IMG/VR virus record: IMGVR_UViG_2778261084_000006
Location: 1 to 25,050 of that record
Strand: one strand, 5' to 3'
DNA length: 25,050 bases
Origin: a virus
Taxonomy: Duplodnaviria > Heunggongvirae > Uroviricota > Caudoviricetes
The position numbers and the translations under genes were made by a program. Under the pieces are notes generated by a model. The model made no database searches. It worked only from the letters and a program-made list of their open reading frames with translations, and was not told the origin of the DNA. Below are positions 3,142 through 23,416 of this stretch, piece after piece (positions within the stretch are counted from its first letter, which is position 1; each line of letters begins with the position of its first letter).

Positions 3142-3366
3142 ATGCATACAGTTTCTGAAAATCAGTGCGGTAAATACGCATTACTGCTGCAACAGGCCAG
3201 AACCGAAGCACAGGCCGATGCAGCGACGCGCTTTTCTTCTCATCTTGACGCCATGATTCGCCACATCACAAAGGCGGAGTTATCCCGCGTGGAGATAGTC
3301 GAGCTGCTCAGTCAGGAGTCGGAAAAATTTCACAACATCGGATTGTCTCGCGGGGAGGTGCTTTGA
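3142..3366 (+). CDS. small early-operon hypothetical protein (P2 orf80-like position)
   Basis: ATG at 3142 with ggagaaag RBS; track ORF starts at TTG 3109; stop overlaps next start. Confidence 0.5.
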
Positions 3367-3668: not shown

Positions 3669-3892
3669 TGCCGGACAACGTAGATTTTATTCAGGAACAA
3701 CAGGCTGAATTACTGGAGCGCCAGATTAACGCGGCAAGGGTAAAACATTGCGGTGCTTCTGCGCTGGTTTGCGAAGAGTGTGACGCGCCAATACCTGCTG
3801 CCCGTCGTGCGGCTTATCCGTCAGCCACGCGTTGTGTTTCCTGTCAGGCAGTCTTTGAAGCAAAAAACAAACATTACCGGAGAACGGCATGA
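3668..3892 (+). CDS. TraR/DksA-family C4 zinc-finger protein (P2 orf82-like)
   Basis: 74 aa; CGASALVCEECDAPIP...ATRCVSCQ gives CxxC-N17-CxxC; TAATG overlap with upstream gene. Confidence 0.75.
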   Translation: MPDNVDFIQEQQAELLERQINAARVKHCGASALVCEECDAPIPAARRAAYPSATRCVSCQAVFEAKNKHYRRTA

Positions 3893-4164
3893 GTATTCGT
3901 ATTGAAATTGGCGAACGTTATGTCGTTACCAGTGACAGCTTTCAGTTTATTCTCCACGAGAAAAAGAGAGCGGAAAGCGGTAAAAACGCCGGTCAGGAAT
4001 GGCTGGCGGTGGTTGGTTATTACCCGAAATTAAGCCAGCTCGTTTCCGGCCTGATGCATCACGATATTCTGACCGGAAGCGCAAAATCTTTTGCCGATTT
4101 AAACGTGCAGGTTGAGCAACTCAGCAGGCGTTGTTCAGAGGCTTTTGGCTCATATGGACGTTAA
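3889..4164 (+). CDS. small early-operon hypothetical protein (P2 orf83-like position)
   Basis: ATGA overlap with upstream stop; ggagaacgg RBS; 3' end overlaps the A start. Confidence 0.5.
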   Translation: MSIRIEIGERYVVTSDSFQFILHEKKRAESGKNAGQEWLAVVGYYPKLSQLVSGLMHHDILTGSAKSFADLNVQVEQLSRRCSEAFGSYGR

Positions 4165-6439
4165 AGCCTCCGGGCGTTTTGTCCCTCCGTCAGCATTTGC
4201 CGCAGGCACCGGTAAGACGTTTACCGGTGCTTATGCATGGAACGCGCCACGCGAGGCTGTCGGGCGCGAAAGACCCCTTACACGTGACGAGATGCGTCAG
4301 GTGCAAGGTGTTTTATCCACGATAAATCGCCTGCCTTATTTTTTGCGCTCGCTGTTTACTTCACGCTATGACTACATCCGGCGCAATAAAAGCCCGGTGC
4401 ACGGGTTTTATTTCCTCACATCCACTTTTCAGCGTCGTTTATGGCCGCGCATTGAGCGTGTGAATCAGCGCCATGAAATGAACACCGACGCGTCGTTGCT
4501 GTTTCTGGCAGAGCGTGACCATTATGCGCGCCTGCCGGGAATGAATGACAAGGAGCTGAAAAGGTTTGCCGCCCGTATCTCATCGCAGCTTTTCATGATG
4601 TATGAGGAACTCTGCGATGCCTGGGTGGATGCGCATGGCGAAAAAGAATCGCTGTTTACGGATGAGGCGCAGGCGTATCTGTATGGTCATGTTGCTGGCG
4701 CTGCACGTGCTTTCAATATTTCCCCGCTTTACTGGAAAAAATACCGTAAAGGACAGATGACCACGAGGCAGGCATATTCTGCCATTGCCCGTCTGTTTAA
4801 CGATGAGTGGTGGACTCATCAGCTTAAAGGCCAGCGTATGCGCTGGCATGAGGCGTTATTGATAGCTGTCGGGGAGGTCAATAAAGACCGTTCTCCTTAT
4901 GCCAGTAAACATGCCATTCGGGATGTGCGTGCGCGCCGTCAGGCAAATCTGGAGTTTCTTAAATCGTGTGACCTTGAAAACAGGGAAACCGGCGAACGCA
5001 TCGACCTTATCAGTAAGGTGATGGGCAGTATTTCTAATCCTGAAATTCGCCGGATGGAGCTGATGAACACCATTGCCGGTATTGAGCGTTACGCCGCCGC
5101 AGAGGGTGATGTGGGGATGTTTATCACGCTGACCGCGCCGTCAAAGTATCACCCGACACGTCAGGTCGGAAAAGGCGAAAGTAAAACCGTCCAGCTTAAT
5201 CACGGCTGGAATGATGAGGCATTTAATCCGAAGGATGCGCAGCGTTATCTCTGCCGTATCTGGAGCCTGATGCGCACGGCATTCAAGGATAATGATTTAC
5301 AGGTCTACGGTTTGCGAGTCGTCGAGCCACACCACGACGGAACGCCGCACTGGCATATGATGCTTTTTTGTAATCCACGCCAGCGTAACCAGATTATCGA
5401 AATCATGCGTCGCTACGCGCTCAAAGAGGATGGCGACGAAAGAGGAGCTGCGCGAAACCGTTTTCAGGCAAAACACCTTAACCGGGGCGGTGCTGCGGGA
5501 TATATCGCGAAATACATTTCAAAAAACATCGACGGCTATGCACTGGATGGTCAGCTCGATAACGATACCGGCAGGCCGCTGAAAGACACCGCCGCGGCTG
5601 TTACCGCATGGGCGTCAACGTGGCGCATCCCGCAATTTAAAACGGTTGGCCTGCCGACAATGGGGGCTTACCGTGAACTACGCAAATTGCCGCGCGGCGT
5701 CAGCATTGCTGATGAGTTTGACGAGCGCGTCGAGGCTGCACGCGCCGCCGCAGACAGTGGCGATTTTGCGTTGTATATCAGCGCGCAGGGTGGGGCAAAT
5801 GTCCCGCGCGATTGTCAGACTGTCAGAGTCGCCCGTAGCCCGTCGGATGACGTTAACGAGTACGAGGAAGAAGTCGAGAGAGTGGTCGGCATTTACGCGC
5901 CGCATCTCGGCGCGCGTCATATTCATATCACCAGAACGACGGACTGGCGCATTGTGCCGAAAGTTCCGGTCGTTGAGCCTTTGACTTTAAAAAGCGGCAT
6001 CGCCGCGCCTCGGAGTCCTGTCAATAACTGTGGAAAGCTCACCGGTGGTGATACTTCGTTACCGGCTCCCACACCTTCTGAGCACGCCGCAGCAGTGCTT
6101 AATCTGGTTGATGACGGTGTTATTGAATGGAATGAACCGGAGGTCGTGAGGGCGCTCAGGGGCGCATTAAAACACGACCTGCGAACGCCAAACCGTCAGC
6201 AAAGAAACGGAAGCCCGTTAAAACCACATGAAATTGCACCATCGGCCAGACTGACCCGGTCGGAAAGAATGCAAATTACCCGTATCCGCGTTGACCTTGC
6301 TCAGAACGGTATCAGGCCACAGCGATGGGAGCTTGAGGCGCTGGCGCGGGGAGCGACCATAAATTATGGCGGGAAAAAATTCACGTATCCGGTCACTGAT
6401 GAGTGGCCGGGATTCTCAACAGTAATGGAGTGGACATAA
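4154..6439 (+). CDS. A: rolling-circle replication initiator gpA (HUH endonuclease), 761 aa
   Basis: HUH-type motif HHDGTPHWHMMLF and tandem-tyrosine motif AGYIAKYISKNIDGY; first ATG at 4154 (MDVKASG...) gives 761 aa; track ORF starts at TTG 4112. Confidence 0.9.
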   Translation: MDVKASGRFVPPSAFAAGTGKTFTGAYAWNAPREAVGRERPLTRDEMRQVQGVLSTINRLPYFLRSLFTSRYDYIRRNKSPVHGFYFLTSTFQRRLWPRIERVNQRHEMNTDASLLFLAERDHYARLPGMNDKELKRFAARISSQLFMMYEELCDAWVDAHGEKESLFTDEAQAYLYGHVAGAARAFNISPLYWKKYRKGQMTTRQAYSAIARLFNDEWWTHQLKGQRMRWHEALLIAVGEVNKDRSPYASKHAIRDVRARRQANLEFLKSCDLENRETGERIDLISKVMGSISNPEIRRMELMNTIAGIERYAAAEGDVGMFITLTAPSKYHPTRQVGKGESKTVQLNHGWNDEAFNPKDAQRYLCRIWSLMRTAFKDNDLQVYGLRVVEPHHDGTPHWHMMLFCNPRQRNQIIEIMRRYALKEDGDERGAARNRFQAKHLNRGGAAGYIAKYISKNIDGYALDGQLDNDTGRPLKDTAAAVTAWASTWRIPQFKTVGLPTMGAYRELRKLPRGVSIADEFDERVEAARAAADSGDFALYISAQGGANVPRDCQTVRVARSPSDDVNEYEEEVERVVGIYAPHLGARHIHITRTTDWRIVPKVPVVEPLTLKSGIAAPRSPVNNCGKLTGGDTSLPAPTPSEHAAAVLNLVDDGVIEWNEPEVVRALRGALKHDLRTPNRQQRNGSPLKPHEIAPSARLTRSERMQITRIRVDLAQNGIRPQRWELEALARGATINYGGKKFTYPVTDEWPGFSTVMEWT

Positions 6440-6592: not shown

Positions 6593-8431
6593 ATGAGCGA
6601 GTTTGATGTTTTTTCTATTTCAGTTGATGATTTTAAAAAAAGTGAATACGCCAGTATATTATCATCGCCAAGAAGTTATTCTCATTTTGATATGGAGTCT
6701 TATTTTGTTCAGTTGTTGTCATCTTACAAGCTAAAAAACGATGTAAGTTCTTGGCGGCTTTGCTATTTATTACGTGCGTTGTTTAATTTTAAATTTTCTA
6801 GGTCTGGTGATATTATCGGTTTTGAGCCAAAAATCATTCTCTATCCTGAGAGGGGCTATAGGCCTTCAGATTATAAGGAGAGTTTTTCAACAATATTAAC
6901 TTGTATTAAAGAAAACTCCGATAATCCTTATATTATATCTAGGGTGTGTGATGTTTTATGGATAAATAACCGTAAGGATATAGACTCTGCCAATAAAGCA
7001 ATAGAGTCATATTCTCTAATGGTTAATGATGCTTGCGATACTTTAATAGAAAAACAAGAGTCAGGTGATATCCATATTTTTGATGTTGTTGACTGCTTGG
7101 ATAGAGGTATCGCAATATCGCGCATGCTTATTGGCAGGAAAAAACAACTACAAGGGGGGATAGTTGATTCGACATTAAGGTTATATCATGTATTAATAGA
7201 CTCTGGTATATTCACCGGTGTATTAAGAGTTTCTGAAATTCTTTATAAGAATAATTTATTGTGTCCCTTGCAATTGGCTGAGAATGCAGAAAAGATAGCT
7301 GATGAGCATTGTGGAGCGTCTTATTTTGATGCAGTGAAAAAATTGTTTTATTTTGCGTCTGAATTATATGTTAAAAACGATATGGAAGAGCAAGGAAGAC
7401 GGTGCAGAATTAAAGCGTCAGAAATAACATTGGCTCAATTTGAACAGTCTTCATCTTCAATATTGAAGGCTCATTGGTTAAGAGTTGCTCTTGGCGAATT
7501 TAGAGCAATTGGTGGAATGAATGAAGAAATTAAAAAGATTAGAGAGGAATTGAATTCTATTCGAGATCAAATTAATGATGAAATGCACTTCTTTGCAATA
7601 CCAATGGATCTTAGTGATGTTATCGCTCAGAAAGAGCATGTTTATAATCAATTGGATTTCTCAAGGGTAATTAAAACTTTAATTGCTAGATTTAAGATTG
7701 TAAGTGCCAGTGAAATTATGGAAAGAGCTCGTTCCGATGCTAAAAAACATTTTTTTCTTAATATGAGTGAAACGGTTGTTTATGATGATAGAGGGCGCGT
7801 TGTAGCAAGTCGTTCACCTTTGGATCCTGCGGGGGATATAAGTTTAAATGATGCTTGTGCAAATTATTTAAGAACTAGTAACATTGAGCATCAGGTCTAT
7901 GTTTGTGGTGAGTTTGAAGTCGTTAGGCAAAGTGTGTTGGCTAGGTATTCATTAAATGAAAATACATTTGACCCAATCTCACAACAAAGTGCATTTGTTC
8001 CACCTGGGTATGCAGAAATATTTTCTTTGGGGTTTTATAAGCTTTGGCAGGGAGATTATGTGTCTGCCTGTTATTTGTTATTGCCGCAATTGGAGAATTC
8101 AATTAGATGGATTTTAGAATTAAGAAGAAAAGAAACAACGAAAATAGATGTGTCGCTTTTTGAGGAGGCTACTAGCCTATCTCAAATGCTTGCAAATTAT
8201 AGGAGTGAAATGGAAGGTGTTTTTGATAGTGATCATGTATTGACTATGGATTTATTGTTCAATATGAAAGGTGGTGCTGCAATTAGACACACGATGGCTC
8301 ATGGCAGGTATACTGTAAATCATTGTTATCAACCAACTTCAGTTTTTGCCTGTGTCTTTATCTTTTATTTAACTTGTTTGCCTTTATTTAGTGTATGGGA
8401 AGATAAAGTTGAACCTTATCTGGCTGATTAA
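6593..8431 (+). CDS. cargo protein of unknown function, 612 aa, in the A-to-cos variable locus; possible HEPN-like motif and C-terminal hydrophobic anchor
   Basis: long ORF in visibly AT-rich DNA with aaggtgagg RBS; no Walker A motif (so not an Old-type ATPase); GGAAIRHTMAHG (Rx4H) near C-terminus followed by hydrophobic SVFACVFIFYLTCLPLFSVW. Confidence 0.7.
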   Translation: MSEFDVFSISVDDFKKSEYASILSSPRSYSHFDMESYFVQLLSSYKLKNDVSSWRLCYLLRALFNFKFSRSGDIIGFEPKIILYPERGYRPSDYKESFSTILTCIKENSDNPYIISRVCDVLWINNRKDIDSANKAIESYSLMVNDACDTLIEKQESGDIHIFDVVDCLDRGIAISRMLIGRKKQLQGGIVDSTLRLYHVLIDSGIFTGVLRVSEILYKNNLLCPLQLAENAEKIADEHCGASYFDAVKKLFYFASELYVKNDMEEQGRRCRIKASEITLAQFEQSSSSILKAHWLRVALGEFRAIGGMNEEIKKIREELNSIRDQINDEMHFFAIPMDLSDVIAQKEHVYNQLDFSRVIKTLIARFKIVSASEIMERARSDAKKHFFLNMSETVVYDDRGRVVASRSPLDPAGDISLNDACANYLRTSNIEHQVYVCGEFEVVRQSVLARYSLNENTFDPISQQSAFVPPGYAEIFSLGFYKLWQGDYVSACYLLLPQLENSIRWILELRRKETTKIDVSLFEEATSLSQMLANYRSEMEGVFDSDHVLTMDLLFNMKGGAAIRHTMAHGRYTVNHCYQPTSVFACVFIFYLTCLPLFSVWEDKVEPYLAD

Positions 8432-8592
8432 TGGAAGTTGATTTAGGTATTTTGGCATTTATCTTTCTGCGTGCAATATGTGCATGGTTTTGCATGTGCC
8501 GGAGTTGCATGTTCCGGCCGTGCGTCCGCCAGGACGGGCGTGGCTCAAAAGCGGTATTGCACTTGCATTAAAACCGCCCCACGAAGCGGGCG

Positions 8593-8611
8593 GGCGAGGC
8601 GGGGAAAGCAC
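8593..8611 (+). other. putative cos cohesive-end sequence (ggcgaggcggggaaagcac)
   Basis: 19-mer matches my recollection of the P2 cohesive end; lies between the A-side cargo and Q as expected for the P2 genome end; not verifiable here. Confidence 0.55.
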
Positions 8612-8744
8612 TGCGCGCAATGATGTCAGTTTGAGGGCATCAGGCATGGGGACACTACACAGTTTCATTTTTGTTATTAATTGTTTATCATATAAGTGTT
8701 TGTTTTTTGAACGGCATGTCGTGTGCTATATGGAGTGAATAGAA

Positions 8745-9014
8745 GTGACTAAATTTGACAAAAAAAAAGCAATTTCTATTTTAACAGAAAAAAAAGCCTT
8801 GCTCCCATGTCATCGGTGTGGAAATTCAAAGTTCATCATTTTGGATGGCATATCATCACTTCCATTAATGGAAAATATGGAAATGATTGGTAGTATTGTT
8901 GTTGGCGGAATGAATGCTCCTGTATTACATGTGGCATGTGAGAATTGTGGTGCAGTTACTTCACATTTGCTTGGGGCACTTGGTTTAATGCCGGAGATTA
9001 AATCAAATGACTAA
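8745..9014 (+). CDS. small zinc-ribbon protein (CxxC...CxxC), hypothetical cargo
   Basis: 89 aa from GTG start with ggagtg RBS; CHRCGN ... CENCGA cysteine pairs; last 8 nt overlap the next ORF. Confidence 0.6.
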   Translation: MTKFDKKKAISILTEKKALLPCHRCGNSKFIILDGISSLPLMENMEMIGSIVVGGMNAPVLHVACENCGAVTSHLLGALGLMPEIKSND

Positions 9015-9477
9015 GGATGTTTTTTTCTCTGATGAAGGTAGTGGTAAAAAAAGTGCTGTCTTGCATGGGGCGCAGGTTACAATAAACCCTGATTCGCAAT
9101 TTACAAAAAAGATAATTAGGCAGACTGAGGTTGATGTTATTGTGATAAGTGATGATAAACTTCATATAATTTTGACGAATTGCTTATCTAAAATTGCATC
9201 ATTAAACCGCTGGTCAACACCTTTGGGTATTTTAATTACCTTGGCGGTAACTATGTTAACCACAAATTTTAAGAATTTTATTCTTCAGGATTCTGTGTGG
9301 GAGGCTGTTTTCTGGATGCTTATTTTTTTTAATATTATCTGGTTGGTGAAAAACATTCCATATAGACACTTATTTTTAACTGTTTGTCATTCTATAGGGG
9401 TTCGTAAAGATAAAAAAAGAATTAGTGATGTATACCACATTATAGATATAATTAAACAAGGTGATACACGCTTTTGA
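9007..9477 (+). CDS. small membrane protein with two predicted TM helices, hypothetical cargo
   Basis: 156 aa; hydrophobic segments WSTPLGILITLAVTMLTTNF and WEAVFWMLIFFNIIWLV; start overlaps upstream stop (translational coupling); AT-rich. Confidence 0.6.
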   Translation: MTKDVFFSDEGSGKKSAVLHGAQVTINPDSQFTKKIIRQTEVDVIVISDDKLHIILTNCLSKIASLNRWSTPLGILITLAVTMLTTNFKNFILQDSVWEAVFWMLIFFNIIWLVKNIPYRHLFLTVCHSIGVRKDKKRISDVYHIIDIIKQGDTRF

Positions 9478-9553: not shown

Positions 9554-10573
9554 TCATAATGTGTATTTGTTGAATCTAATTATTTCTTCGCCAACCCATT
9601 CATTAAGGGCAATAAAGCGAGATTGAATAGGAGTAAGCTCATTGCGGACAAAGACCTTTGCCACTTTCTCAATATCACCCAGTGACCCGACGTTCTCCGG
9701 CTTGCCGCCCATCAACTGAAAGGGGATGCGGTGCGCGTCCAGCAGGTCAGCGGCGCTGGCTTTTTTGATATTAAAAAAATCGTCCTTCGTCGCCACTTCA
9801 CTGAGGGGGATAATTTTAATGCCGTCGGCTTTCCCCTGTGGGGCATAGAGAAACAGGTTTTTAAAGTTGTTGCGGCCTTTCGACTTGACCATGTTTTCGC
9901 GAAGCATTTCGATATCGTTGCGATCCTGCACGGCATCAGTGACGTACATGATGTATCCGGCATGAGCGCCGTTTTCGTAATACTTGCGGCGGAACAGCGT
10001 GGCCGACTCATTCAGCCAGGCAGAGTTAAGGGCGCTGAGATATTCCGGCAGGCCGTACAGCTCCTGATTAATATCGGGCTCCAGCAGGTGAAACACGGAG
10101 CCGGGCGCGAAGGCTGTCGGCTCGTTGAAGGACGGCACCCACCAGTAAACATCCTCTTCCACGCCACGACGGGTATATTTTGCCGGTGAGGTTTCCAGTC
10201 TGATGACCTTACCGGTGGTGCTGTAACGCTTTTCCAGAAACGCATTACCGAACACCAGAAAATCCAGCACAAAGCGGCTGAAATCCTGCTGGGAAAGCCA
10301 CGGATGCGGAATAAACGTTGAAGCCAGAATATTGCGTTTAACGTAAATCGGCGAGCTGTGATGCACGGCAGCACGCAGGCTTTTTGCCAGACCGGTAAAG
10401 CTGACCGGTGGCTCATACCATCTGCCGTTACTGATGCACTCGACGTAATCCAGAATGTCACGGCGGTCGAGAACCGGCACCGGCTCGCCAAAGGTGAATG
10501 CCTCCATTTTCGGGGCGCTGGCGGTCATTTTTTTTGCCGCTGGTCGCGGTGTTTTCCCTTTTTTCTTGCTCAT
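9554..10573 (-). CDS. Q: portal protein gpQ (P2-like)
   Basis: 339 aa, MSKKKGKTPRPAAKK...; Q start overlaps P stop (ATGA) as in P2. Confidence 0.9.
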   Translation of the reverse strand: MSKKKGKTPRPAAKKMTASAPKMEAFTFGEPVPVLDRRDILDYVECISNGRWYEPPVSFTGLAKSLRAAVHHSSPIYVKRNILASTFIPHPWLSQQDFSRFVLDFLVFGNAFLEKRYSTTGKVIRLETSPAKYTRRGVEEDVYWWVPSFNEPTAFAPGSVFHLLEPDINQELYGLPEYLSALNSAWLNESATLFRRKYYENGAHAGYIMYVTDAVQDRNDIEMLRENMVKSKGRNNFKNLFLYAPQGKADGIKIIPLSEVATKDDFFNIKKASAADLLDAHRIPFQLMGGKPENVGSLGDIEKVAKVFVRNELTPIQSRFIALNEWVGEEIIRFNKYTL

Positions 10574-11250
10574 CAGTAAAACTCCAGAATGGTGGATGTC
10601 AGCGGAGTGCTGATACCCGCGGTGAGTGGCTCATTTAACAGGGCGTGCATGGTCGCCCAGGCGAGGTCGGCGTGGCTGGCTTCCTCGCTGCGGCTGGCCT
10701 CATAGGTGGCGCTGCGTCCGCTGCTGGTCATGGTCTTGCGGATAGCCATAAACGAGCTGGTGATGTCGGTGGCGCTGACGTCATATTCCAGACAGCCACG
10801 GCGGATGACGTCTTTTGCCTTGAGCACCATTGCGGTTTTCATTTCCGGCGTGTAGCGGATATCGCGCGCGGCGGGATAGAACGAGCGCACGAGCTGGAAC
10901 ACGCCGACACCGAGGCCGGTGGCATCAATACCGATGTATTCAACGTTATATTTTTCGGTGAGTTTGCGGATGGATTCCGCCTGGGTGGCAAAGTCCATGC
11001 CTTTCCACTGGTGACGCTCAAGTATTCTGAATTTGCCACCGGCCACCACCGGCGGTGCCAGTACCACGCATCCGGCGCTGTCGCCACGGTGTGACGGGTC
11101 GTAACCAATCCATACCGGACGTGAGCCGAACGGATTGGCGGCAAACGGCGCATAGTCTTCCCATTCTTCCAGCGTGTCGACCATGCAGCGTTGCAGCTCC
11201 TCGACCCGAATTTTGCTACCACCATGACTAATGCGCTTGCGGGTAAGCAA
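10573..11250 (-). pseudogene. P: terminase large subunit gpP, 5'-truncated (C-terminal ~225-237 codons only)
   Basis: C-terminal nuclease-domain-like sequence (WIGYDPSHRGDSAGCVVLAPP...YIGIDATGLGVGVF); frame closed by an in-frame stop at 11287-11289; full P2 gpP is ~590 aa; upstream DNA is tail-fibre coding on the other strand. Confidence 0.8.
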
Positions 11251-12318
11251 CCGAAAGATGCCACTTTGACGGCGCTGGCGGGGCTTGCTACTGCGGCAGA
11301 CAGGTTTCCGTATTTTACGGGGAATGATGTTGCCAGCCTGGCGACCCTGACAAAAGTCGGGCGGGATATTCTGGCTAAATCGACCGTTGCCGCCGTTATC
11401 GAATATCTCGGTTTACAGGAAACGGTAAACCGAGCCGGGAACGCCGTGCAAAAAAATGGCGATACCTTGTCCGGTGGACTTACTTTTGAAAACGACTCAA
11501 TCCTTGCCTGGATTCGAAATACTGACTGGGCGAAGATTGGATTTAAAAATGATGCCGATGGTGACACTGATTCATACATGTGGTTTGAAACGGGGGATAA
11601 CGGCAATGAATATTTCAAATGGAGAAGTCGCCAGAGCACCACAACAAAAGACCTGATGAATCTTAAATGGGATGCTCTGTATGTTCTTGTTAAAGCCCTT
11701 TTCAGCAGTGAAGTAAAAATATCTACAGTCAATGCGCTGAGGATATTTAATTCATCTTTTGGTGCTATTTTTCGCCGTTCTGAAGAAAACCTGTATATCA
11801 TTCCTACACGAGAAAATGAGGGTGAAAATGGAGATATTGGGCCATTAAGGCCATTCGGCATCAACTTAAGAACAGGAGTTGTGTCTGTTGGTAATGGTGC
11901 CAGGATTGATGGCGGGCTGGCACTTGGCACGAATAACGCGTTGGGTGGGAACTCTATTGTTCTTGGTGATAACGACACCGGATTTAAACAAAATGGCGAT
12001 GGTAATCTGGATGTTTATGCTAATAACGTCCATGTTATGCGCTTTGTTTCCGGAAGCATTCAAAGTAATAAGACCATAAATATTACGGGGCGTGTTAATC
12101 CCTCGGATTACGGTAACTTTGATTCCCGCTATGTGAGAGATATCAGACTTGGCACACGTGTTGTCCAGACCATGCAGAAAGGGGTGATGTATGAGAAAGC
12201 AGGGCACGTAATTACCGGGCTTGGTATTGTCGGTGAAGTCGATGGTGATGACCCCGCAGTATTCAGGCCAATACAAAAATACATCAATGGCACATGGTAT
12301 AACGTCGCACAGGTGTAA
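11191..12318 (+). pseudogene. H: tail fibre gpH-like, 5'-truncated (C-terminal ~365 aa)
   Basis: conserved tail-fibre block NALAGKQPKDATLTALAGLATAADRFPYFTGNDVASLATL begins at ~11230; ORF opens at TTG 11191 inside P-derived DNA; followed by tail fibre assembly gene. Confidence 0.75.
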
Positions 12319-12321
12319 TTT

Positions 12322-12849
12322 ATGCAGCATTTAAAAAATATTACTGCGGGTAATCCAAAAACTGTTGCCCAATATCAACTGACAAAAAATTTTGATGTTA
12401 TCTGGTTATGGTCCGAAGAGGGAAAAAACTGGTATGAGGAAGTAAGTAATTTTCAGGAAGACACGATAAAGATTGTTTACGACGAGAATAATATAATTGT
12501 CGGCATCACCAGAGATGCTTCAACGCTTAACCCTGAAGGTTTCAGCGTTGTCGAGGTTCCTGATATTACCTCCAACCGACGTGCTGATGACTCAGGTAAA
12601 TGGATGTTTAAGGATGGTGCCGTGATTAAGCGGATTTATACGGCAGATGAACAGGAGCAACAGGCAGAATCACAAAAGGCAGCTTTACTTTCCGAAGCTG
12701 AATCCGTGATTTTGCCGCTGGAACGCGCTGTCAGGCTGAATATGGCGACGGATGAGGAACGCAGCCGACTGGAAGCATGGGAACGCTACAGCGTTCTGGT
12801 CAGTCGTGTGGATCCTGCAAATCCCGAATGGCCGGAAATGCCGCAATAA
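12322..12849 (+). CDS. G: tail fibre assembly chaperone gpG
   Basis: 175 aa, [41 protein letters not shown] ... [12 protein letters not shown]; matches my recollection of P2 gpG. Confidence 0.9.
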
Positions 12850-13117
12850 GTTGTATGATCTCTGGTGTGAGCTTACATATCTATAGCACAGAGTAAAGCC
12901 TAATCTGACAGTCCGCTATGTGCCAAAAGCGGAAGTTGCTTCGTGCTGGGATAGGATGATTATGGAAATGTGTTCATGAGCATTTCATGACGCATGAATT
13001 GAATTATAATTCAATTAGATATACTATATTTATAATTAAAAATAGCATTGTAATATTTAAAAGATATATGTTATTGATACGCATATTTATTCTTTTAAAT
13101 TCACAAGTGAGGTTTGT

Positions 13118-14140
13118 ATGCGTAGAGTAGTAATTGACACAAATATTTTATATGCTCTGACTGGAGTTTCTGTGAATGAAAAGGTGGTAACTTCGAGTCT
13201 TAATGATTTTAAGCTATCCATAACCACCCCATCAATTATAGAGATGGTTGTTAAATTTCAATATGATTTAGATACAATAAAGAAATGCCTCGAACCTATC
13301 ATAAATGAAAGCATTGAGCTCATTAGCATAGGTCACGCCCCAATTCCGAATGAATATCTTTACATGTTACACTTCGCGAAGGAAATAGAAGAAGTTACAG
13401 ATCTCATTGATGAGATTAAAACGTTAAAAATCTCCAGGGAAGCTGAATTCTACAGGTTTATACTTATATTAGTTGTTTCTGGGTTATTTGAGGTTATTAG
13501 AGAGGATGGCTACAAATTTTGTGATGAGGCACGAAATCAAAAACAATTAATGATGGTGCGTTCTTTATTTGAGTCTAACATGGATCTAATATTAGATTAC
13601 TTTAAAGATGAAATACGTAATGGATATATGAATGGAAATGAACAACAAGCTGCCCTAGATGCTTTCCAAAGTAAAATAATCATGTTATTAAATATTTTTC
13701 ATATAAATTATCATATGATTAAAACCGATACATTTCCTTATAATGAATCCTCGGTGAACCTTGAGAACTTAATCACTAGTTTAGATAGTGATTGCTTTAA
13801 CATAAAACTTAAAAAATACATCGATAATCCTTTATTTTTTGCATCTAAAGCAAAATACAATTCGATAATAAATAATTATATGGCAGAAATGAGAAATGGA
13901 ATGCTAGATTTGAGTGGACTCACTGAGAAGTCTATGGATTTCCTATTGAATAAGATTGACAGTGCTTATAAAAATGGCAGGAAGTTGCGAAAAAATGACA
14001 TATTTGATTTCCTGATTGTTATTTCCTTAAACATGCCAGACACTTTGATTGTTACACTTGATAAAGGTTTCCTGAAAGATCTTGAACATCTTGATTATAA
14101 TAGCTACCAACTTTGTCAAAAGTTAGGCTATATAAATTGA
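13118..14140 (+). CDS. PIN-like domain protein (putative nuclease), 340 aa, cargo in G-to-FI variable locus
   Basis: N-terminus MRRVVIDTNILYAL (PIN first strand with Asp), downstream PSIIEMVVKF (second acidic), C-terminal LIVTLDKGF (PIN TxD..F-like); AT-rich; agtgagg RBS. Confidence 0.6.
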   Translation: MRRVVIDTNILYALTGVSVNEKVVTSSLNDFKLSITTPSIIEMVVKFQYDLDTIKKCLEPIINESIELISIGHAPIPNEYLYMLHFAKEIEEVTDLIDEIKTLKISREAEFYRFILILVVSGLFEVIREDGYKFCDEARNQKQLMMVRSLFESNMDLILDYFKDEIRNGYMNGNEQQAALDAFQSKIIMLLNIFHINYHMIKTDTFPYNESSVNLENLITSLDSDCFNIKLKKYIDNPLFFASKAKYNSIINNYMAEMRNGMLDLSGLTEKSMDFLLNKIDSAYKNGRKLRKNDIFDFLIVISLNMPDTLIVTLDKGFLKDLEHLDYNSYQLCQKLGYIN

Positions 14141-14348
14141 AACTTTCAGTGAATGTAATGAAACCATTACACCAACTTTTAGATGACTCTGGATAAGACA
14201 ACAGTAAGAATAATTGCAGAGGTCCTCTTTTCGCTCATAGCAGCCCTCGCGGCGCTTCAGACGGTCTGCTTCGTGCTGGAGCGGACCTAAGTGCCTAGCT
14301 ATGAGTGGCACGACAGAATACAATGTAAAATAAAATACCCTTGCAGGG

Positions 14349-15407
14349 ATGAAAATAATGATTGAACCGTTTAGTTGGGAAAATTGGAAGCAAGTATACC
14401 TACATAAAAAAAACAAGAAGCGAGTTTCTCTTGAACGATACGGATTGAGAAGTCTTCACTCTGTCGCCAGCTTGGACTTAATCGTATCAAAAGTTCATGA
14501 ATTATATTTAAAAAAACAGCAAGAAGTGGCTGTTAATGCTAAATCTGTTTGGATAGATGGAACTCCTCAGGCTAAATTCAAGAGTGTCGATGGCTCTGTC
14601 TTAAACTGCGAATTGGCGGATCTTCTGTTTATTATTCACGAGATGGATAATAAAAACAAAACAATAAATTTTCGAGCTACCTTATTACAAGGTAAGTGTT
14701 CTGAGAAACATAATTTACTCCCAAATGGACCTTCGACAGATAAAGAAAGAAAACTGCTCGAATCTATCGATCGCAATGAGTATTTGTACTTATACCCAGG
14801 CACGAGGGCATACGGAGAAAAAATAGGGAAATATAAATTAGGCGGGGAGAACATCGGATTAGCGGACTGTGCGAAATATTTAATTATGCCTAAATATGAA
14901 AGATGGAAATATAAAACACCTGATAATATATCTCCTTACGTAATTGGCTGGCCAAACAAAATATCATCCAATTATTTAACCAATGTTGTAAATTACATGG
15001 ATGTAATTCTTGAAAAAATGATTTCATCAAAGACCATGGGAAAGGAAATAAATTTAACGATGCAAAACCATATAGACAGGCAATGTGAGTGGTCAAAAAT
15101 GATTTATGATTTGTTAAATAGCTACTTACCGATAACAATGAAGGGCTATGACTCCCAACGAAGAGTATATAAGTCAAGTTTATTTGACGATAATATGTCT
15201 GCTACATTAGCATTGATTAATAATGGTCACTGTGATTTCATAAGTAAACATGCTTTTAAAGACTTGCCTAAAGGTAAGGGTAGGTTTTTATATCAACATA
15301 CATTAAATATTCTTGGGGATTACTCTAGCCCCGTTATTTCAACAATATATATCCAAATCAAACAAAAGGAAGGGGAAATATATCGTCAATCTCTTGGGGT
15401 TGATTGA
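14349..15407 (+). CDS. hypothetical protein, 352 aa, cargo
   Basis: long AT-rich ORF on same strand as the PIN-like gene; no motif recognised; alternative start at 14358. Confidence 0.6.
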   Translation: MKIMIEPFSWENWKQVYLHKKNKKRVSLERYGLRSLHSVASLDLIVSKVHELYLKKQQEVAVNAKSVWIDGTPQAKFKSVDGSVLNCELADLLFIIHEMDNKNKTINFRATLLQGKCSEKHNLLPNGPSTDKERKLLESIDRNEYLYLYPGTRAYGEKIGKYKLGGENIGLADCAKYLIMPKYERWKYKTPDNISPYVIGWPNKISSNYLTNVVNYMDVILEKMISSKTMGKEINLTMQNHIDRQCEWSKMIYDLLNSYLPITMKGYDSQRRVYKSSLFDDNMSATLALINNGHCDFISKHAFKDLPKGKGRFLYQHTLNILGDYSSPVISTIYIQIKQKEGEIYRQSLGVD

Positions 15408-15655
15408 GTTAGGAGTAACTGTTTGCTAAAGACTATATTTCCACTCTTGACGAGAATAATAAGATGCTCGGTTTTATTAGCAGAGTTATTTTAAAATTCA
15501 ATTCAGAAAGATATGATTGTGTTTAGGCTTAGGTCCACTCCTCGCTCATAGCAGACCTGATAATGTTCTGTCGATCAGTGGGTTCAAGAAAAGGACTATT
15601 AATCATCAACTATTAGTTGACCATTATCGTCATCGAAAATATTAGGTAAAAAATT

Positions 15656-15694
15656 GAGCCACAGACAAAAATATATTGAATTAACCTGTGGCTC
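15656..15694 (-). terminator. hairpin downstream of the GNAT gene (stem gagccacag / ctgtggctc, 21-nt loop)
   Basis: perfect 9-bp stem; on the minus strand it is followed by a T-run (complement of aaaaaatt); long loop lowers confidence. Confidence 0.4.
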
Positions 15695-15701
15695 TTTAAC
15701 A

Positions 15702-16352
15702 TTAGAGGTACATGCTCATCGGTATGCCTTGCCCTGCCTCAAGAGCAGCTTTACCTATCCATGTATCATGAACAACAAATCCATATTTTTCAAAATGCTT
15801 CTTGAGTGGTATGTCCGCAGCGGTAAGATATATTTCCTCAATGCCTTCTTGCTTACAATACTGTATGGCGTTTTCCAGAAGTTCGGCGAAAAGCCCAAGG
15901 CCATGATATTCTTGGAAGTCATATTTTTGAGGGATTACTGGTTCGTAGGGATTTACAAGCATTACATCAACGATCATTAAAATATTAGGGTAGGAATGTG
16001 CTAATATGAGCTCTACCGTCTCTTTATCATCCAGTTCTGGATCCTGAACCTCTCCATGTACATATAAAATATCTTTAATAACATTTTCATTTATATGTTT
16101 TGACACTTTTTTATATAGTAGCGGGTTATTAGTTTGGCATTCCCTTCCAAATATAAACTTATCTTGGTTAGGATTTGCATTGCAGAAACGGTCCCACGCT
16201 GCAATACCTATCTGAAAAAGATCATTTGGTTTATTTCTTACAAGGAATTCTATTCGCTCAATTCCATATTCTATGAATTTTACTGGATTAGTAAATTTTT
16301 TTGTTATTGATTCAGAAGGAAGTATAGCGTTTAATCTTCTCTGGTTTTCCAT
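15702..16352 (-). CDS. GNAT-family N-acetyltransferase, 216 aa, cargo
   Basis: acetyl-CoA-binding motif A region EYHGLGLFAELLENAIQYCKQEGIEEIYLTAAD and C-terminal KKHFEKYGF typical of GNAT fold; ATG with aggtg RBS; convergent with the 352-aa ORF. Confidence 0.7.
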   Translation of the reverse strand: MENQRRLNAILPSESITKKFTNPVKFIEYGIERIEFLVRNKPNDLFQIGIAAWDRFCNANPNQDKFIFGRECQTNNPLLYKKVSKHINENVIKDILYVHGEVQDPELDDKETVELILAHSYPNILMIVDVMLVNPYEPVIPQKYDFQEYHGLGLFAELLENAIQYCKQEGIEEIYLTAADIPLKKHFEKYGFVVHDTWIGKAALEAGQGIPMSMYL

Positions 16353-16693
16353 AATTCACACCTTGTAATTACCTCATGAAAATAATCTATATGTTGCACC
16401 AAGAAAGATAACATTGCCATAATTTATTAACTGGCCTATGACGCACATCAAGAATGGTCGTATCGGAATAAGGAGTAGCGGAAGATTATACCAGCAGATT
16501 TGCTACAAATATTAATAGTAGTTCTGGTGATGCTATGGGCTAGCATCACGAAAATGATGAATCATGTGTTATGCGGACACGATACTTGATCATAACGACA
16601 GCTTCTCGCTCAAAGCAGACTGTCAGATTTGATAGCGTTTTGGCTATGTAAATTGTCAGTCGGGAAATAAGTGAGTACAAATCATGACAGGCG

Positions 16694-16720
16694 GGCGGAT
16701 TGTCCGCCTTTTCTTTATCT
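16694..16720 (+). terminator. intrinsic-terminator-like hairpin plus T-tract upstream of FI
   Basis: ggcgga-ttg-tccgcc followed by ttttctttatctgttgtttc. Confidence 0.4.
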
Positions 16721-21473: not shown

Positions 21474-21953
21474 ATGATGCTCGCGTTAGGTATGTTTGTT
21501 TTTATGCGCCAGACGCTGCCACACCAGACCATGCAGCGTGAATCAGATTATCGCTGGCCGTCAAATTCCCGTATCGGTAAACGGGATGCCTTTCAGTTTC
21601 TCGGTGTGGGTGAGGAAAACATTACGCTTGCCGGTGTGCTTTATCCCGAACTGACAGGCGGAAAGCTGACGATGACCACGCTCAGGCTGATGGCAGAGGA
21701 AGGTCGGGCGTGGCCGTTGCTGGATGGCACCGGCATGATTTACGGCATGTATGTCATCAGCAGGGTGAGTGAAACAGGGAGTATTTTCTTTGCAGACGGC
21801 ACACCCCGGAAAATTGATTTTACGCTGTCGCTCACCCGCGTTGATGAATCACTGGCCGCGCTTTATGGCGATATCGGTAAACAGGCGGAATCGCTCATCG
21901 GTAAGGCTGGCAGTATGGCGACCAGATTCACGGGTATGACGGGGGCGGGATAA
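21474..21953 (+). CDS. U: tail protein gpU
   Basis: 159 aa, MMLALGMFVFMRQTLPHQTMQRESDYRWPSNSRIGKRDAFQF; P2 order T-U-D. Confidence 0.9.
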   Translation: MMLALGMFVFMRQTLPHQTMQRESDYRWPSNSRIGKRDAFQFLGVGEENITLAGVLYPELTGGKLTMTTLRLMAEEGRAWPLLDGTGMIYGMYVISRVSETGSIFFADGTPRKIDFTLSLTRVDESLAALYGDIGKQAESLIGKAGSMATRFTGMTGAG

Positions 21954-23116
21954 TGCTGGATGCGCTGACATTTGATGCAGGCAGTACGCTGACGCCGGAT
22001 TACATGCTGATGCTCGACAGCAGGGATATTACCGGCAATATCAGCGACCGTCTGATGAGCATGACCCTGACGGATAACCGGGGCTTTGAGGCTGACCAGC
22101 TTGATATTGAACTGAACGATGCCGACGGGCAGGTCGGGCTGCCGGTTCGTGGCGCTGTCCTGACGGTGTATATCGGCTGGAAAGGTTTTGCCCTGGTATG
22201 CAAAGGGAAATTTACCGTTGATGAGGTTGAACACCGGGGCGCGCCGGATGTGGTTACCATCCGCGCCCGGAGTGCAGATTTTCGCGGGACGCTCAATTCC
22301 CGCCGTGAAGGCTCCTGGCATGACACCACGCTCGGTGCGATTGTTGAGGTGATAGCCTCCCGTAACAGGCTGGAAGCCAGTGTCGCGCCGTCACTGGCCG
22401 GAATTAAAATCCCGCACATCGACCAGTCGCAGGAGTCTGATGCAAAATTCCTGACCCGCCTTGCTGAACGCAACGGCGGGGAGGTGTCGGTAAAAATGGG
22501 AAAACTGTTGTTTCTCAAAGCGGGGCAGGGAGTGACGGCCAGCGGTAAAAAAATCCCGCAGGTCACCATAACCCGCAGCGACGGCGACCGCCATCATTTT
22601 GCGATTGCTGACCGTGGAGCCTACACCGGTGTAACGGCAAAATGGCTACACACCAAAGACCCGAAGCCTCAAAAGCAGAAGGTAAAACTGAAACGCAAAA
22701 AGAAAGAGAAACACCTGCGCGCACTGGAGCACCCGAAAGCGAAACCGGTCAGGCAGAAGAAAGCGCCTAAAGTACCGGAAGCGCGTGAAGGTGAATACAT
22801 GGCCGGTGAGGCTGACAACGTTTTTGCCCTGACCACGGTATATGCCACGAAAGCGCAGGCCATGCGCGCCGCTCAGGCGAAGTGGGATAAACTGCAACGG
22901 GGCGTTGCGGAGTTCTCCATCAGCCTGGCTACCGGTCGGGCAGATATTTACACGGAAACACCGGTCAAAGTGTCTGGCTTTAAGCGCGTCATAGACGAGC
23001 AGGACTGGACAATCACTAAGGTGACACATTTTCTGAATAATAGCGGCTTCACGACGTCCTTAGAGCTTGAGGTCAGGCTTTCTGATGTGGAGTACGAAAC
23101 AGAAGATGATGAGTGA
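21953..23116 (+). CDS. D: tail protein gpD (late gene D)
   Basis: 387 aa, MLDALTFDAGSTLTPDYMLMLDSRDITGNISDRLMSMTLTDNRGFEADQLDIELND; start overlaps U stop. Confidence 0.9.
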   Translation: MLDALTFDAGSTLTPDYMLMLDSRDITGNISDRLMSMTLTDNRGFEADQLDIELNDADGQVGLPVRGAVLTVYIGWKGFALVCKGKFTVDEVEHRGAPDVVTIRARSADFRGTLNSRREGSWHDTTLGAIVEVIASRNRLEASVAPSLAGIKIPHIDQSQESDAKFLTRLAERNGGEVSVKMGKLLFLKAGQGVTASGKKIPQVTITRSDGDRHHFAIADRGAYTGVTAKWLHTKDPKPQKQKVKLKRKKKEKHLRALEHPKAKPVRQKKAPKVPEAREGEYMAGEADNVFALTTVYATKAQAMRAAQAKWDKLQRGVAEFSISLATGRADIYTETPVKVSGFKRVIDEQDWTITKVTHFLNNSGFTTSLELEVRLSDVEYETEDDE

Positions 23117-23197
23117 TGTTTTTGTTTTATCTGTTTGTTTTGTAAGGATAAATTAACTAAAATGGCACCATCAACAAAACCGGAAGAGGTGCTCGCG

Positions 23198-23416
23198 ATG
23201 TTTCATTGTCCTTTATGCCAGCATGCCGCACATGCGCGTACAAGTCGCTATATCACTGACACGACAAAAGAGCGTTATCATCAGTGCCAGAACGTGAATT
23301 GCAGCGCCACGTTCATCACTTATGAGTCGGTACAGCGATACATCGTGAAGCCGGGAGAAGTCCACGCCGTAAGGCCGCACCCGTTGCCATCAGGACAGCA
23401 AATTATGTGGATGTAA
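23198..23416 (+). CDS. ogr: late-gene transcriptional activator Ogr (zinc finger), 72 aa
   Basis: MFHCPLCQHAAHARTSRYITDTTKERYHQCQNVNCSATFITYESVQRYIVKPGEVH with CxxC...CxxxxC; track ORF starts upstream at 23135. Confidence 0.9.
   Translation: MFHCPLCQHAAHARTSRYITDTTKERYHQCQNVNCSATFITYESVQRYIVKPGEVHAVRPHPLPSGQQIMWM

Follow-up and report, generated by a model that had tools for sequence, protein, structure and literature searches.

An uncharacterised GNAT-fold gene carried as a small cassette in the Z/fun hotspot of a P2-like prophage

What does a solitary GNAT-like gene do in the cargo island of a prophage, and does it need a partner to do it? The question is raised by a gene for a 216-residue GNAT-like protein (15702..16352, minus strand, ATG start) in a 25,050-nucleotide stretch of Caudoviricetes DNA (IMG/VR record IMGVR_UViG_2778261084_000006, positions 1 to 25,050; hereafter the window). 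The gene, referred to below as the GNAT gene, is an uncharacterised GNAT-fold accessory gene in a phage defence hotspot. Its open reading frame (ORF), fold, cassette structure and horizontal spread are established, as are the absence of any conserved partner and the abundance of defence genes around its relatives. As to function, we tentatively favour a reading that we consider plausible but short of probable, namely that the gene is a stand-alone moron expressed in the lysogen, the product of which would modify a macromolecule in an acyl-coenzyme A (acyl-CoA)-dependent manner and so block superinfecting phages.

The original prediction, made from the window alone, had described a 216-residue minus-strand ORF with two GNAT motifs, convergent with its neighbour, and all of this stood. 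The gene converges with ORF2 (14349..15407, plus strand), the quoted motifs EYHGLGLF and KHFEKYGF are residues 148-155 and 185-192 of the protein, and a Shine-Dalgarno sequence, AAGGTG, read from the sequence 6 nt before the ATG (16359..16364, minus strand), is kept in six homologous loci. The protein is 100% identical to ORF3 of the P2-EC48 Z-region (CAD54905 / UniProt Q858S0; GenBank AJ512681; Nilsson, Karlsson and Haggard-Ljungquist 2004), with which the window shares 3.85 kb of DNA at 99.9% identity, the same position between genes G and FI, and the same neighbours, ORF1 and ORF2. That record, titled 'Bacteriophage P2-EC48 proviral Z-region, ORF1, ORF2 and ORF3', annotates a ribosome-binding site at the same place and labels ORF3 a 'putative lysogenic conversion protein'; it differs from the present description in assigning neither fold nor function to ORF3, the sequence being otherwise without difference. 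A literature search on P2-EC48, on GNAT anti-phage systems and on the junction-repeat sequence described below returned nothing specific.

The window contains the whole extent of a P2-like prophage, which is nevertheless defective. The GNAT gene lies in a cargo island (12850-16700) between FI and the tail-fibre assembly gene G (12322-12849; a Pfam-level match to Caudo_TAP), that is, at the Z/fun locus. The island has a GC content of 29-38%, compared to 55-59% for the phage backbone, and is flanked by the Z-region inverted repeats, of which the arm at 12902-12937 pairs with arm I1 at 16594-16629; foreign DNA between G and FI, bounded by these repeats, identifies it as Z/fun cargo. Other P2-like phages and 579 complete Escherichia coli genomes matched the 5% flanks only, which indicates a hotspot with replaceable cargo. 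The fun locus is the second defence-enriched hotspot of P2 and has yielded three validated systems (Vassallo et al. 2022, PMC9519451). The earlier placement of the gene in mobile cargo was thus sound, both in this low-GC island and in the wider distribution of the gene on prophages, integrative and conjugative elements (ICEs) and plasmids.

The GNAT fold itself, proposed earlier from the motifs, was supported by an AlphaFold2 model, by family profile matches and by structural neighbours, and we regard the predicted fold as solid. The model (predicted local distance difference test score 90.9, predicted template modelling score 0.87) has the order beta1-alpha1-alpha2-beta2-beta3-beta4-alpha3-beta5-alpha4-beta6-beta7, which is that of the GNAT fold, and its single domain spans the whole protein, with four helices between beta1 and beta2, the usual substrate-binding region of GNATs. 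The nearest solved structures, NatD/Naa40 (4ua3, 4u9w) and Naa50 (6yzz), have the same fold order and share with the protein a GLG pyrophosphate-binding loop and an FxxYGF motif B. In family profile searches, Naa50 and other GNATs were matched in their motif A/B region, and a PHROG annotated 'acetyltransferase' was matched at E = 2.7e-5; NCBIfam, PADLOC and PHROGs gave nothing specific for the protein. Taken together, the enlarged alpha1-alpha2 region and the N-terminal acetyltransferase neighbours hint weakly, on the strength of the model, at a peptide or protein substrate.

The family is small and divergent. A search of 5.8 billion proteins gave 18 clusters (90% identity), and one of 1.84 billion gave 183 representatives with E ≤ 1e-3, almost all of which are full-length proteins of about 210-220 residues. 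In a set of 50 diverse members, the conserved residues are W53, D129 (in beta4), P135, L176/A178 (in beta5), F187 and G191-F192, together with a family-specific C-terminal G-x-I-P-M motif. Two distant representatives, longer at 418-420 residues (P0054 and P0069), carry the GNAT-like domain fused to an N-terminal domain of ~200 residues (MGQAK(K/Q)RGS...AERHAVW) that has no Pfam match; the fusion is possibly a clue to a partner or target domain.

These searches bear on one rival explanation, in which the protein is an enzyme of lysogenic conversion, for instance one that detoxifies small molecules or confers resistance to them. It would acetylate a metabolite, a microcin, an antibiotic or a toxic analogue of an amino acid, with a benefit to the lysogen that does not depend on phages. 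Many GNATs borne on mobile genetic elements act in this way, the label given to P2-EC48 ORF3 is compatible with it, weak profile matches to streptothricin and phosphinothricin acetyltransferases were obtained (E 0.019-0.077), and one homologue adjoins a second GNAT on a Burkholderia plasmid. However, no NCBIfam resistance-enzyme model was matched, the sole NCBIfam match being ArsN2 at 12.4 bits against a cut-off of 125 bits; the structural neighbours of best Z are protein N-terminal acetyltransferases rather than antibiotic-modifying enzymes; and the neighbours of the relatives are mostly nucleic-acid-targeting defence genes, not resistance genes. We therefore consider a detoxifying enzyme rather unlikely.

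We compared the three proteins of the island with every locus fetched (numbered below with an L). As read from the sequence, the GNAT gene, a putative promoter and a hairpin form a cassette of ~1.06 kb (15533-16621). A promoter-like extended -10 element, TGGTATAAT (16485..16493, minus strand), is of the perfect extended type and is also annotated as a -10 in AJ512681; the hexamer is CATAAT in relatives, and a two-hexamer promoter scan did not call the -10 in the window. The upstream region (16353-16620, ~250 bp) has been kept together with the gene, being 84-87% identical in L022, L011 and L014, and the ~190 bp nearest the gene can still be recognised in Providencia and Pectobacterium. Within it, about 30-70 bp upstream of the putative -10, lies a palindrome with 14-nt arms, GGTGATGCTA-N5-TAGCATCAC (16522..16554; inverted repeat I14), the right arm of which, TAGCATCA, is invariant in six loci, including those of Providencia and Pectobacterium, down to 80% protein identity. 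The left arm shows no compensatory changes, which suggests that the palindrome is probably a DNA site rather than an RNA stem, possibly an operator for some regulator.

Downstream of the gene, the hairpin terminator that had been claimed earlier was recovered in part. A hairpin with a U-tract is present 8 nt after the stop codon (15645..15694, minus strand), with a stem at 15656-15694 followed by AAUUUUUU and a predicted energy of -16 kcal/mol (z = -3.25), and it is conserved in L022 and L011, the two relatives that share the flank, with an A.C mismatch in the stem that is not compensatory. As a terminator it is atypical, however, since its 10-bp stem closes a long loop of ~19 nt, on account of which a strict terminator scan left it uncalled; we refer to it as terminator-like.

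The limits of the cassette coincide with copies of a junction repeat. One copy, GGTCTGCTATGAGCGAGGAGTGGAC (15533..15557, minus strand), forms the downstream boundary of the GNAT cassette, which it shares with the ORF2 cassette; a second (16597..16621, minus strand) forms the upstream boundary and overlaps the right Z-region inverted repeat I1; and a third (14222..14246, minus strand) lies between the ORF1 and ORF2 cassettes. The repeat is an imperfect palindrome with the core GGTCTGCTATGAGCGAGGAGCGGAC, written with its variants as GGTCTGCT(A/T)TGAGCGA(G/A)(G/A)AG(C)GGAC, and its three copies in the window compare with 0.02 expected by chance. Homology with the ICE contig L011 stops at the 15533-15557 copy, and L011 carries a copy of its own equally far away; the GNAT gene of L011, 90% identical, lies between two direct copies 1060 bp apart, compared to 1064 bp in the window. 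The block of identity shared with L022 ends at 16620. On this sequence evidence the junction repeat is a candidate cassette-exchange site.

Further observations were made on the repeat itself. A degenerate copy occurs in the window at about 12902-12937 (plus strand), and a second arm, TCCGCTyyTGGCAyrAAGCGGAC, often precedes the repeat elsewhere. Copies were also present in L011, L012, L022, L034 and L044-L085. In a Rahnella locus (L012) they separate five or six small cassettes (alpha/beta hydrolase, ASCH, HNH, then Abi_2), and in lambdoid prophages the repeat follows a lambda-P-like gene at the start of the nin-region cargo. The repeat was found in 42 IMG/VR contigs, where we estimate that chance would give about 7. 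Of 5,426 complete E. coli genomes, 33 contained it; in the three that were inspected it lay in accessory DNA, in two of them between defence-like genes and in the third beside insertion sequence (IS) elements. A hairpin of ~65 nt is predicted for full two-arm copies (-20 kcal/mol, z = -4.1 in L063), whereas the copies in the window do not fold well, with z from 0 to -1.6. The repeat had no Rfam family and no matching paper.

Does the gene nevertheless depend on a neighbour? ORF1 (13118..14140, plus strand, 340 residues), which had been called PIN-like, occupies a separate cassette; it starts with a PIN-like RRVVIDTNILY, ends DIFDFLIVISL...LIVTLDKGF, and had no match in Pfam, PADLOC, PHROGs, NCBIfam or PDB sequences. 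ORF2 (352 residues), the gene of the neighbouring independent cassette, is possibly PD-(D/E)xK nuclease-like, as judged from its sequence. Among the loci compared, the three genes occur together only in E. coli P2 prophages. The E. coli prophage L021 keeps ORF2 and the GNAT gene and has ORF1 swapped for three other genes exactly left of position 14227, while the non-P2 locus L022 carries ORF2 and the GNAT gene as a 2.35-kb block (88% identical to window positions 14266-16620) adjoining an HD-domain gene and an AAA_15/21 ATPase. ORF1 is absent from both and from 13 of 13 other GNAT contexts. We thus rejected ORF1 as a partner, and with it the earlier suggestion that the GNAT gene might belong to a PIN-like system.

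ORF2 was rejected as an obligate partner as well, as joint travel of the two genes is confined to a single lineage and they are separated by a junction repeat. Thirteen independent contexts have the GNAT gene but no ORF2: in Providencia, next to a P2 ogr remnant; on a Serratia chromosome and Serratia plasmids; in Proteus, alone between icd and a lambdoid integrase with flanks of just 270 and 125 bp; in a Pectobacterium island, an ICE contig, Rahnella, a beta-proteobacterial metagenome-assembled genome and three IMG/VR contigs; and on Paraglaciecola, Rhizobium and Burkholderia plasmids. Conversely, ORF2 homologues occur without the GNAT gene in four contexts (Pantoea, Proteus, Providencia and an Enterobacter lambdoid prophage). 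A common module of a GNAT gene with a convergent nuclease was also unsupported, most contexts having no nuclease next door.

Nor was an antitoxin found. No conserved small ORF was present in either flank of the GNAT gene, no ribbon-helix-helix (RHH) or DUF1778 gene was present, and a search of the flanks against Rfam gave no small RNA or riboswitch match at E ≤ 1, which agrees with the earlier statement that no small antitoxin-like ORF is evident and extends it to RNA. A small hydrophobic ORF upstream (16500-16589, plus strand, 29-40 residues) was considered as an antitoxin or type I toxin and rejected; its start codon is lost in the window, a frameshift interrupts it in L011, and in L010 it is not conserved. 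Since the GNAT gene occurs in contexts lacking ORF1 and ORF2, with no conserved small ORF and no Rfam family, we conclude that it has no obligate partner and no antitoxin, which supports the stand-alone option among those raised originally.

The same data weigh on the possibility that the protein is a partner-dependent toxin or abortive-infection effector. It would then be either a tRNA-acetylating toxin of the TacT/AtaT kind, the antitoxin of which has escaped recognition, or one half of a two-gene module with ORF2. Consistent with this are the movement of ORF2 and the GNAT gene as one block in L022 and their retention together in L021, the convergence of a homologue with Mrr-type (Mrr_cat) endonucleases in Serratia and Rhizobium, a viral contig in which a homologue lies two genes from a convergent GIY-YIG nuclease, and the presence of TacT-family chains among the profile matches (E = 0.014). 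Set against these are the junction repeat that splits ORF2 from the GNAT gene, the 13 and four contexts in which each occurs without the other, the lack of any relation between ORF2 and the Serratia Mrr-like protein (hhalign probability 0.1%), the missing RHH or DUF1778 gene and the decayed small ORF upstream with Rfam empty, and a phenylalanine, Phe187, at the position of the catalytic tyrosine of the toxins. A partner-dependent toxin is, in our judgement, very unlikely.

Proteins more than 90% identical come from Escherichia, Morganella, Raoultella, Klebsiella, Citrobacter, Pantoea and Enterobacter, which with Rahnella makes at least eight enterobacterial genera and indicates recent horizontal spread of the cassette. 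In Rahnella (L012, 8808-10306) only a fragment is left (residues 116-216, 95% identical), immediately downstream of an IS3-family transposase gene, the insertion of which probably truncated the gene; the cassette would accordingly be dispensable in that genome. With close alignment, a scan of genome collections returned two loci and a metagenome scan one fragment.

The neighbours of relatives of the GNAT gene were rich in defence genes. PtuA/GajA-type (Septu/Gabija-type) ATPases accounted for 3 of 104 neighbour proteins (E down to 4e-118 with PADLOC), and other neighbours included, besides the Mrr_cat endonucleases, HsdR (type I restriction-modification), ABC-3C CTD6, UvrD-like helicases, GIY-YIG proteins, a DRT-like RVT_1 protein (a 1232-residue reverse transcriptase) with a KAP NTPase, a TIR protein, and Abi_2 and HNH cassettes. 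The gene product might instead be an anti-defence factor, or a factor in conflict between mobile elements, that inactivates an immune protein of the host or a rival, as AcrVA5 acetylates Cas12a, and protects the carrier element rather than the cell. However, the match to AcrVA5 was no better than that to dozens of generic GNATs, no aca-like regulator is adjacent, and a promoter of its own, opposite to the P2 late operons, would suit a moron trait expressed in the lysogen rather than an early anti-defence gene. This alternative is accordingly quite unlikely.

Overall, we propose that the GNAT gene would function as an autonomous moron cassette, consisting of a sigma-70-type promoter, one ORF and a terminator-like hairpin and bounded by junction repeats, and that it would be expressed from the prophage in the lysogen. 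Its product, a single-domain and highly divergent GNAT-fold protein with an enlarged alpha1-alpha2 region, would need no partner to modify a protein or RNA target in an acyl-CoA-dependent reaction, and this modification may interfere with superinfecting phages, as phage exclusion or defence.

Several points weigh against this proposal. The anti-phage role, the target, the catalytic activity and the expression in the lysogen are all inferred from sequence, not experiment. The association with defence genes is qualitative guilt by association, and cargo regions of mobile genetic elements also carry resistance and virulence genes. PADLOC-DB v2.0.0, which includes the PD-T4, PD-lambda and PD-T7 systems, had no family that any of the three genes (GNAT gene, ORF1 and ORF2) matched at E ≤ 0.1. 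The gene is also rare, being carried by 0 of 5,426 complete RefSeq E. coli genomes. Catalytic competence is made uncertain by sub-threshold Pfam scores, which cover residues 148-196 only (21.6 bits against a cut-off of 23.6 for Acetyltransf_10, and 20.3 against 20.7 for Acetyltransf_1); distant family members scored similarly. Motif A, Q/R-x-x-G-x-G/A, binds the pyrophosphate of acetyl-CoA at the beta4-alpha3 junction of GNATs. In this family it reads (H/K/R)-G-L-G-L-(F/L), with the final G/A gone; in the hidden Markov model alignment, H150-G-L-G153-L-F155 is set against R-G-I-G-I-G of Naa50, the basic residue and central glycine are kept, and G151 is serine in some members. Finally, Phe187, one of only two residues invariant in the 50 diverse members, aligns with the catalytic tyrosine of Naa50, with a tyrosine of 3mgd, and with a phenylalanine position in deposited TacT chains, which we take to be Y140F crystallisation mutants; the catalytic tyrosine of alpha4 is Y140 in TacT and Y144 in AtaT.

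The residues of the active site thus invite the explanation that the protein is catalytically inert, a sensor or binder of CoA or another ligand rather than an enzyme. It would account for the invariant phenylalanine at the position of the general-acid tyrosine, for the degenerate end of motif A and the substitution of G151 by serine or other residues in part of the family, and for the Pfam scores. Against it stand the P-loop-like GLG, the LTAA of beta5 and the FxxYGF of alpha4, all conserved across the 50 members, and the near-invariant acidic D129 on beta4; many active GNATs, moreover, lack the tyrosine, and a tyrosine or histidine three residues after Phe187 (Y190 here) could, judging by its position, serve as a substitute general acid. 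We regard an inert protein as highly doubtful, and catalytic competence as a prediction from mixed evidence, with D129 conserved and phenylalanine at the tyrosine position.

As now understood, the gene encodes an accessory enzyme that is still uncharacterised, and its interest is modest. If the proposed role in defence were true, a compact single-gene acetyltransferase mechanism would be added to the anti-phage repertoire, and a P2 'lysogenic conversion' gene unexplained since 2004 would gain a function. The cassette and junction-repeat organisation may outweigh the gene itself in importance. A bolder two-part conjecture, which we consider unlikely to hold in full, is that the gene represents a new single-gene anti-phage family, in which an atypical GNAT with phenylalanine at the catalytic-tyrosine position would modify a phage or translation component on infection, and that it belongs to a pool of ~1-kb single-gene cassettes (GNAT, ORF2, HNH, ASCH, Abi_2, AbiJ-like and others) shuffled among the P2 Z-hotspot, the lambdoid P/nin junction, ICEs and plasmids by way of the palindromic core GGTCTGCTATGAGCGAGGAGCGGAC of the junction repeat, as an integron-like system without an integron integrase. 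Such exchange, if true, would explain why small defence genes are shared across P2, lambdoid phages, ICEs and plasmids, and the repeat would offer a sequence handle for mining more cassettes.

Elsewhere the prophage carries an integrase (582-1595), replication gene A (4112-6439) and the portal gene (9554-10573) upstream of the island, and the sheath and tube genes (from about 16700), gpD (21953-23116) and ogr (23135-23416) downstream. The defect lies at 9554-12318, where a 225-residue terminase fragment (10573-11250, minus strand), retaining only an RNaseH-like C-terminal domain, abuts a C-terminal piece of the tail-fibre gene H (11191-12318, plus strand), which indicates that the capsid, lysis and baseplate genes were deleted. 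The identical deletion was present in L020, whereas in two other carriers of the island, L018 and L019, the baseplate and fibre genes are intact. Rousset et al. 2022 (PMC9122126) analysed the other hotspot of P2, which lies between A and Q. In the window this hotspot, between A and the portal gene Q (6593-9477), encodes a 612-residue DUF7380 protein that matched the PADLOC candidate system PDC-S39 (E = 2e-68), followed by three small ORFs (86, 89 and 156 residues) with no family match. The 'right inverted repeat' that AJ512681 (L001) annotates at 3166-3256 falls within ORF3; the true right repeat corresponds to 16594-16629 of the window, or ~3775-3810 of that record, and the annotated coordinates are similar to those in the sister record, P2-EC46, which makes an annotation slip probable.

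How, then, does the gene compare with known GNAT classes and known phage-exclusion cargo? As proposed originally, the protein was compared with AtaT, TacT and ItaT and with antibiotic acetyltransferases, and it showed no special closeness to either class. It is no closer to the TacT/AtaT/ItaT toxins than to unrelated GNATs. TacT, AtaT, ItaT and KacT usually have a small antitoxin gene (RHH/DUF1778) upstream, whereas the GNAT gene has none, and TacT/AtaT-type toxins have a catalytic tyrosine where this family has the invariant Phe187; on these three grounds the identity of a TacT/AtaT-type toxin was ruled out. An aminoglycoside acetyltransferase (AAC)-type resistance enzyme was ruled out by the lack of a curated NCBIfam model match, and a RimI/RimJ/RimL orthologue by the lack of an NCBIfam equivalog match and of conserved chromosomal synteny, so that neither a non-GNAT fold nor a RimI/RimJ housekeeping enzyme, either of which had been named as an outcome that would overturn the original prediction, was found.

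The likeness to P2 cargo is closer. P2 Z/fun and other cargo between G and FI (Vassallo et al. 2022) occupy the same insertion point and likewise have low GC and a promoter of their own; validated exclusion or defence genes fill this slot in other P2-like phages, although the GNAT protein is unrelated to them. Brc113 and BrcP, single GNAT-domain integron cassettes, are listed among phage-defence cassettes (bioRxiv 10.1101/2024.07.02.601719). They differ from the GNAT cassette in being integron cassettes, whereas the latter has a different boundary repeat and no integron integrase nearby. Compared by concept rather than by sequence, they are the same, a small GNAT-domain gene carried as a mobile cassette.

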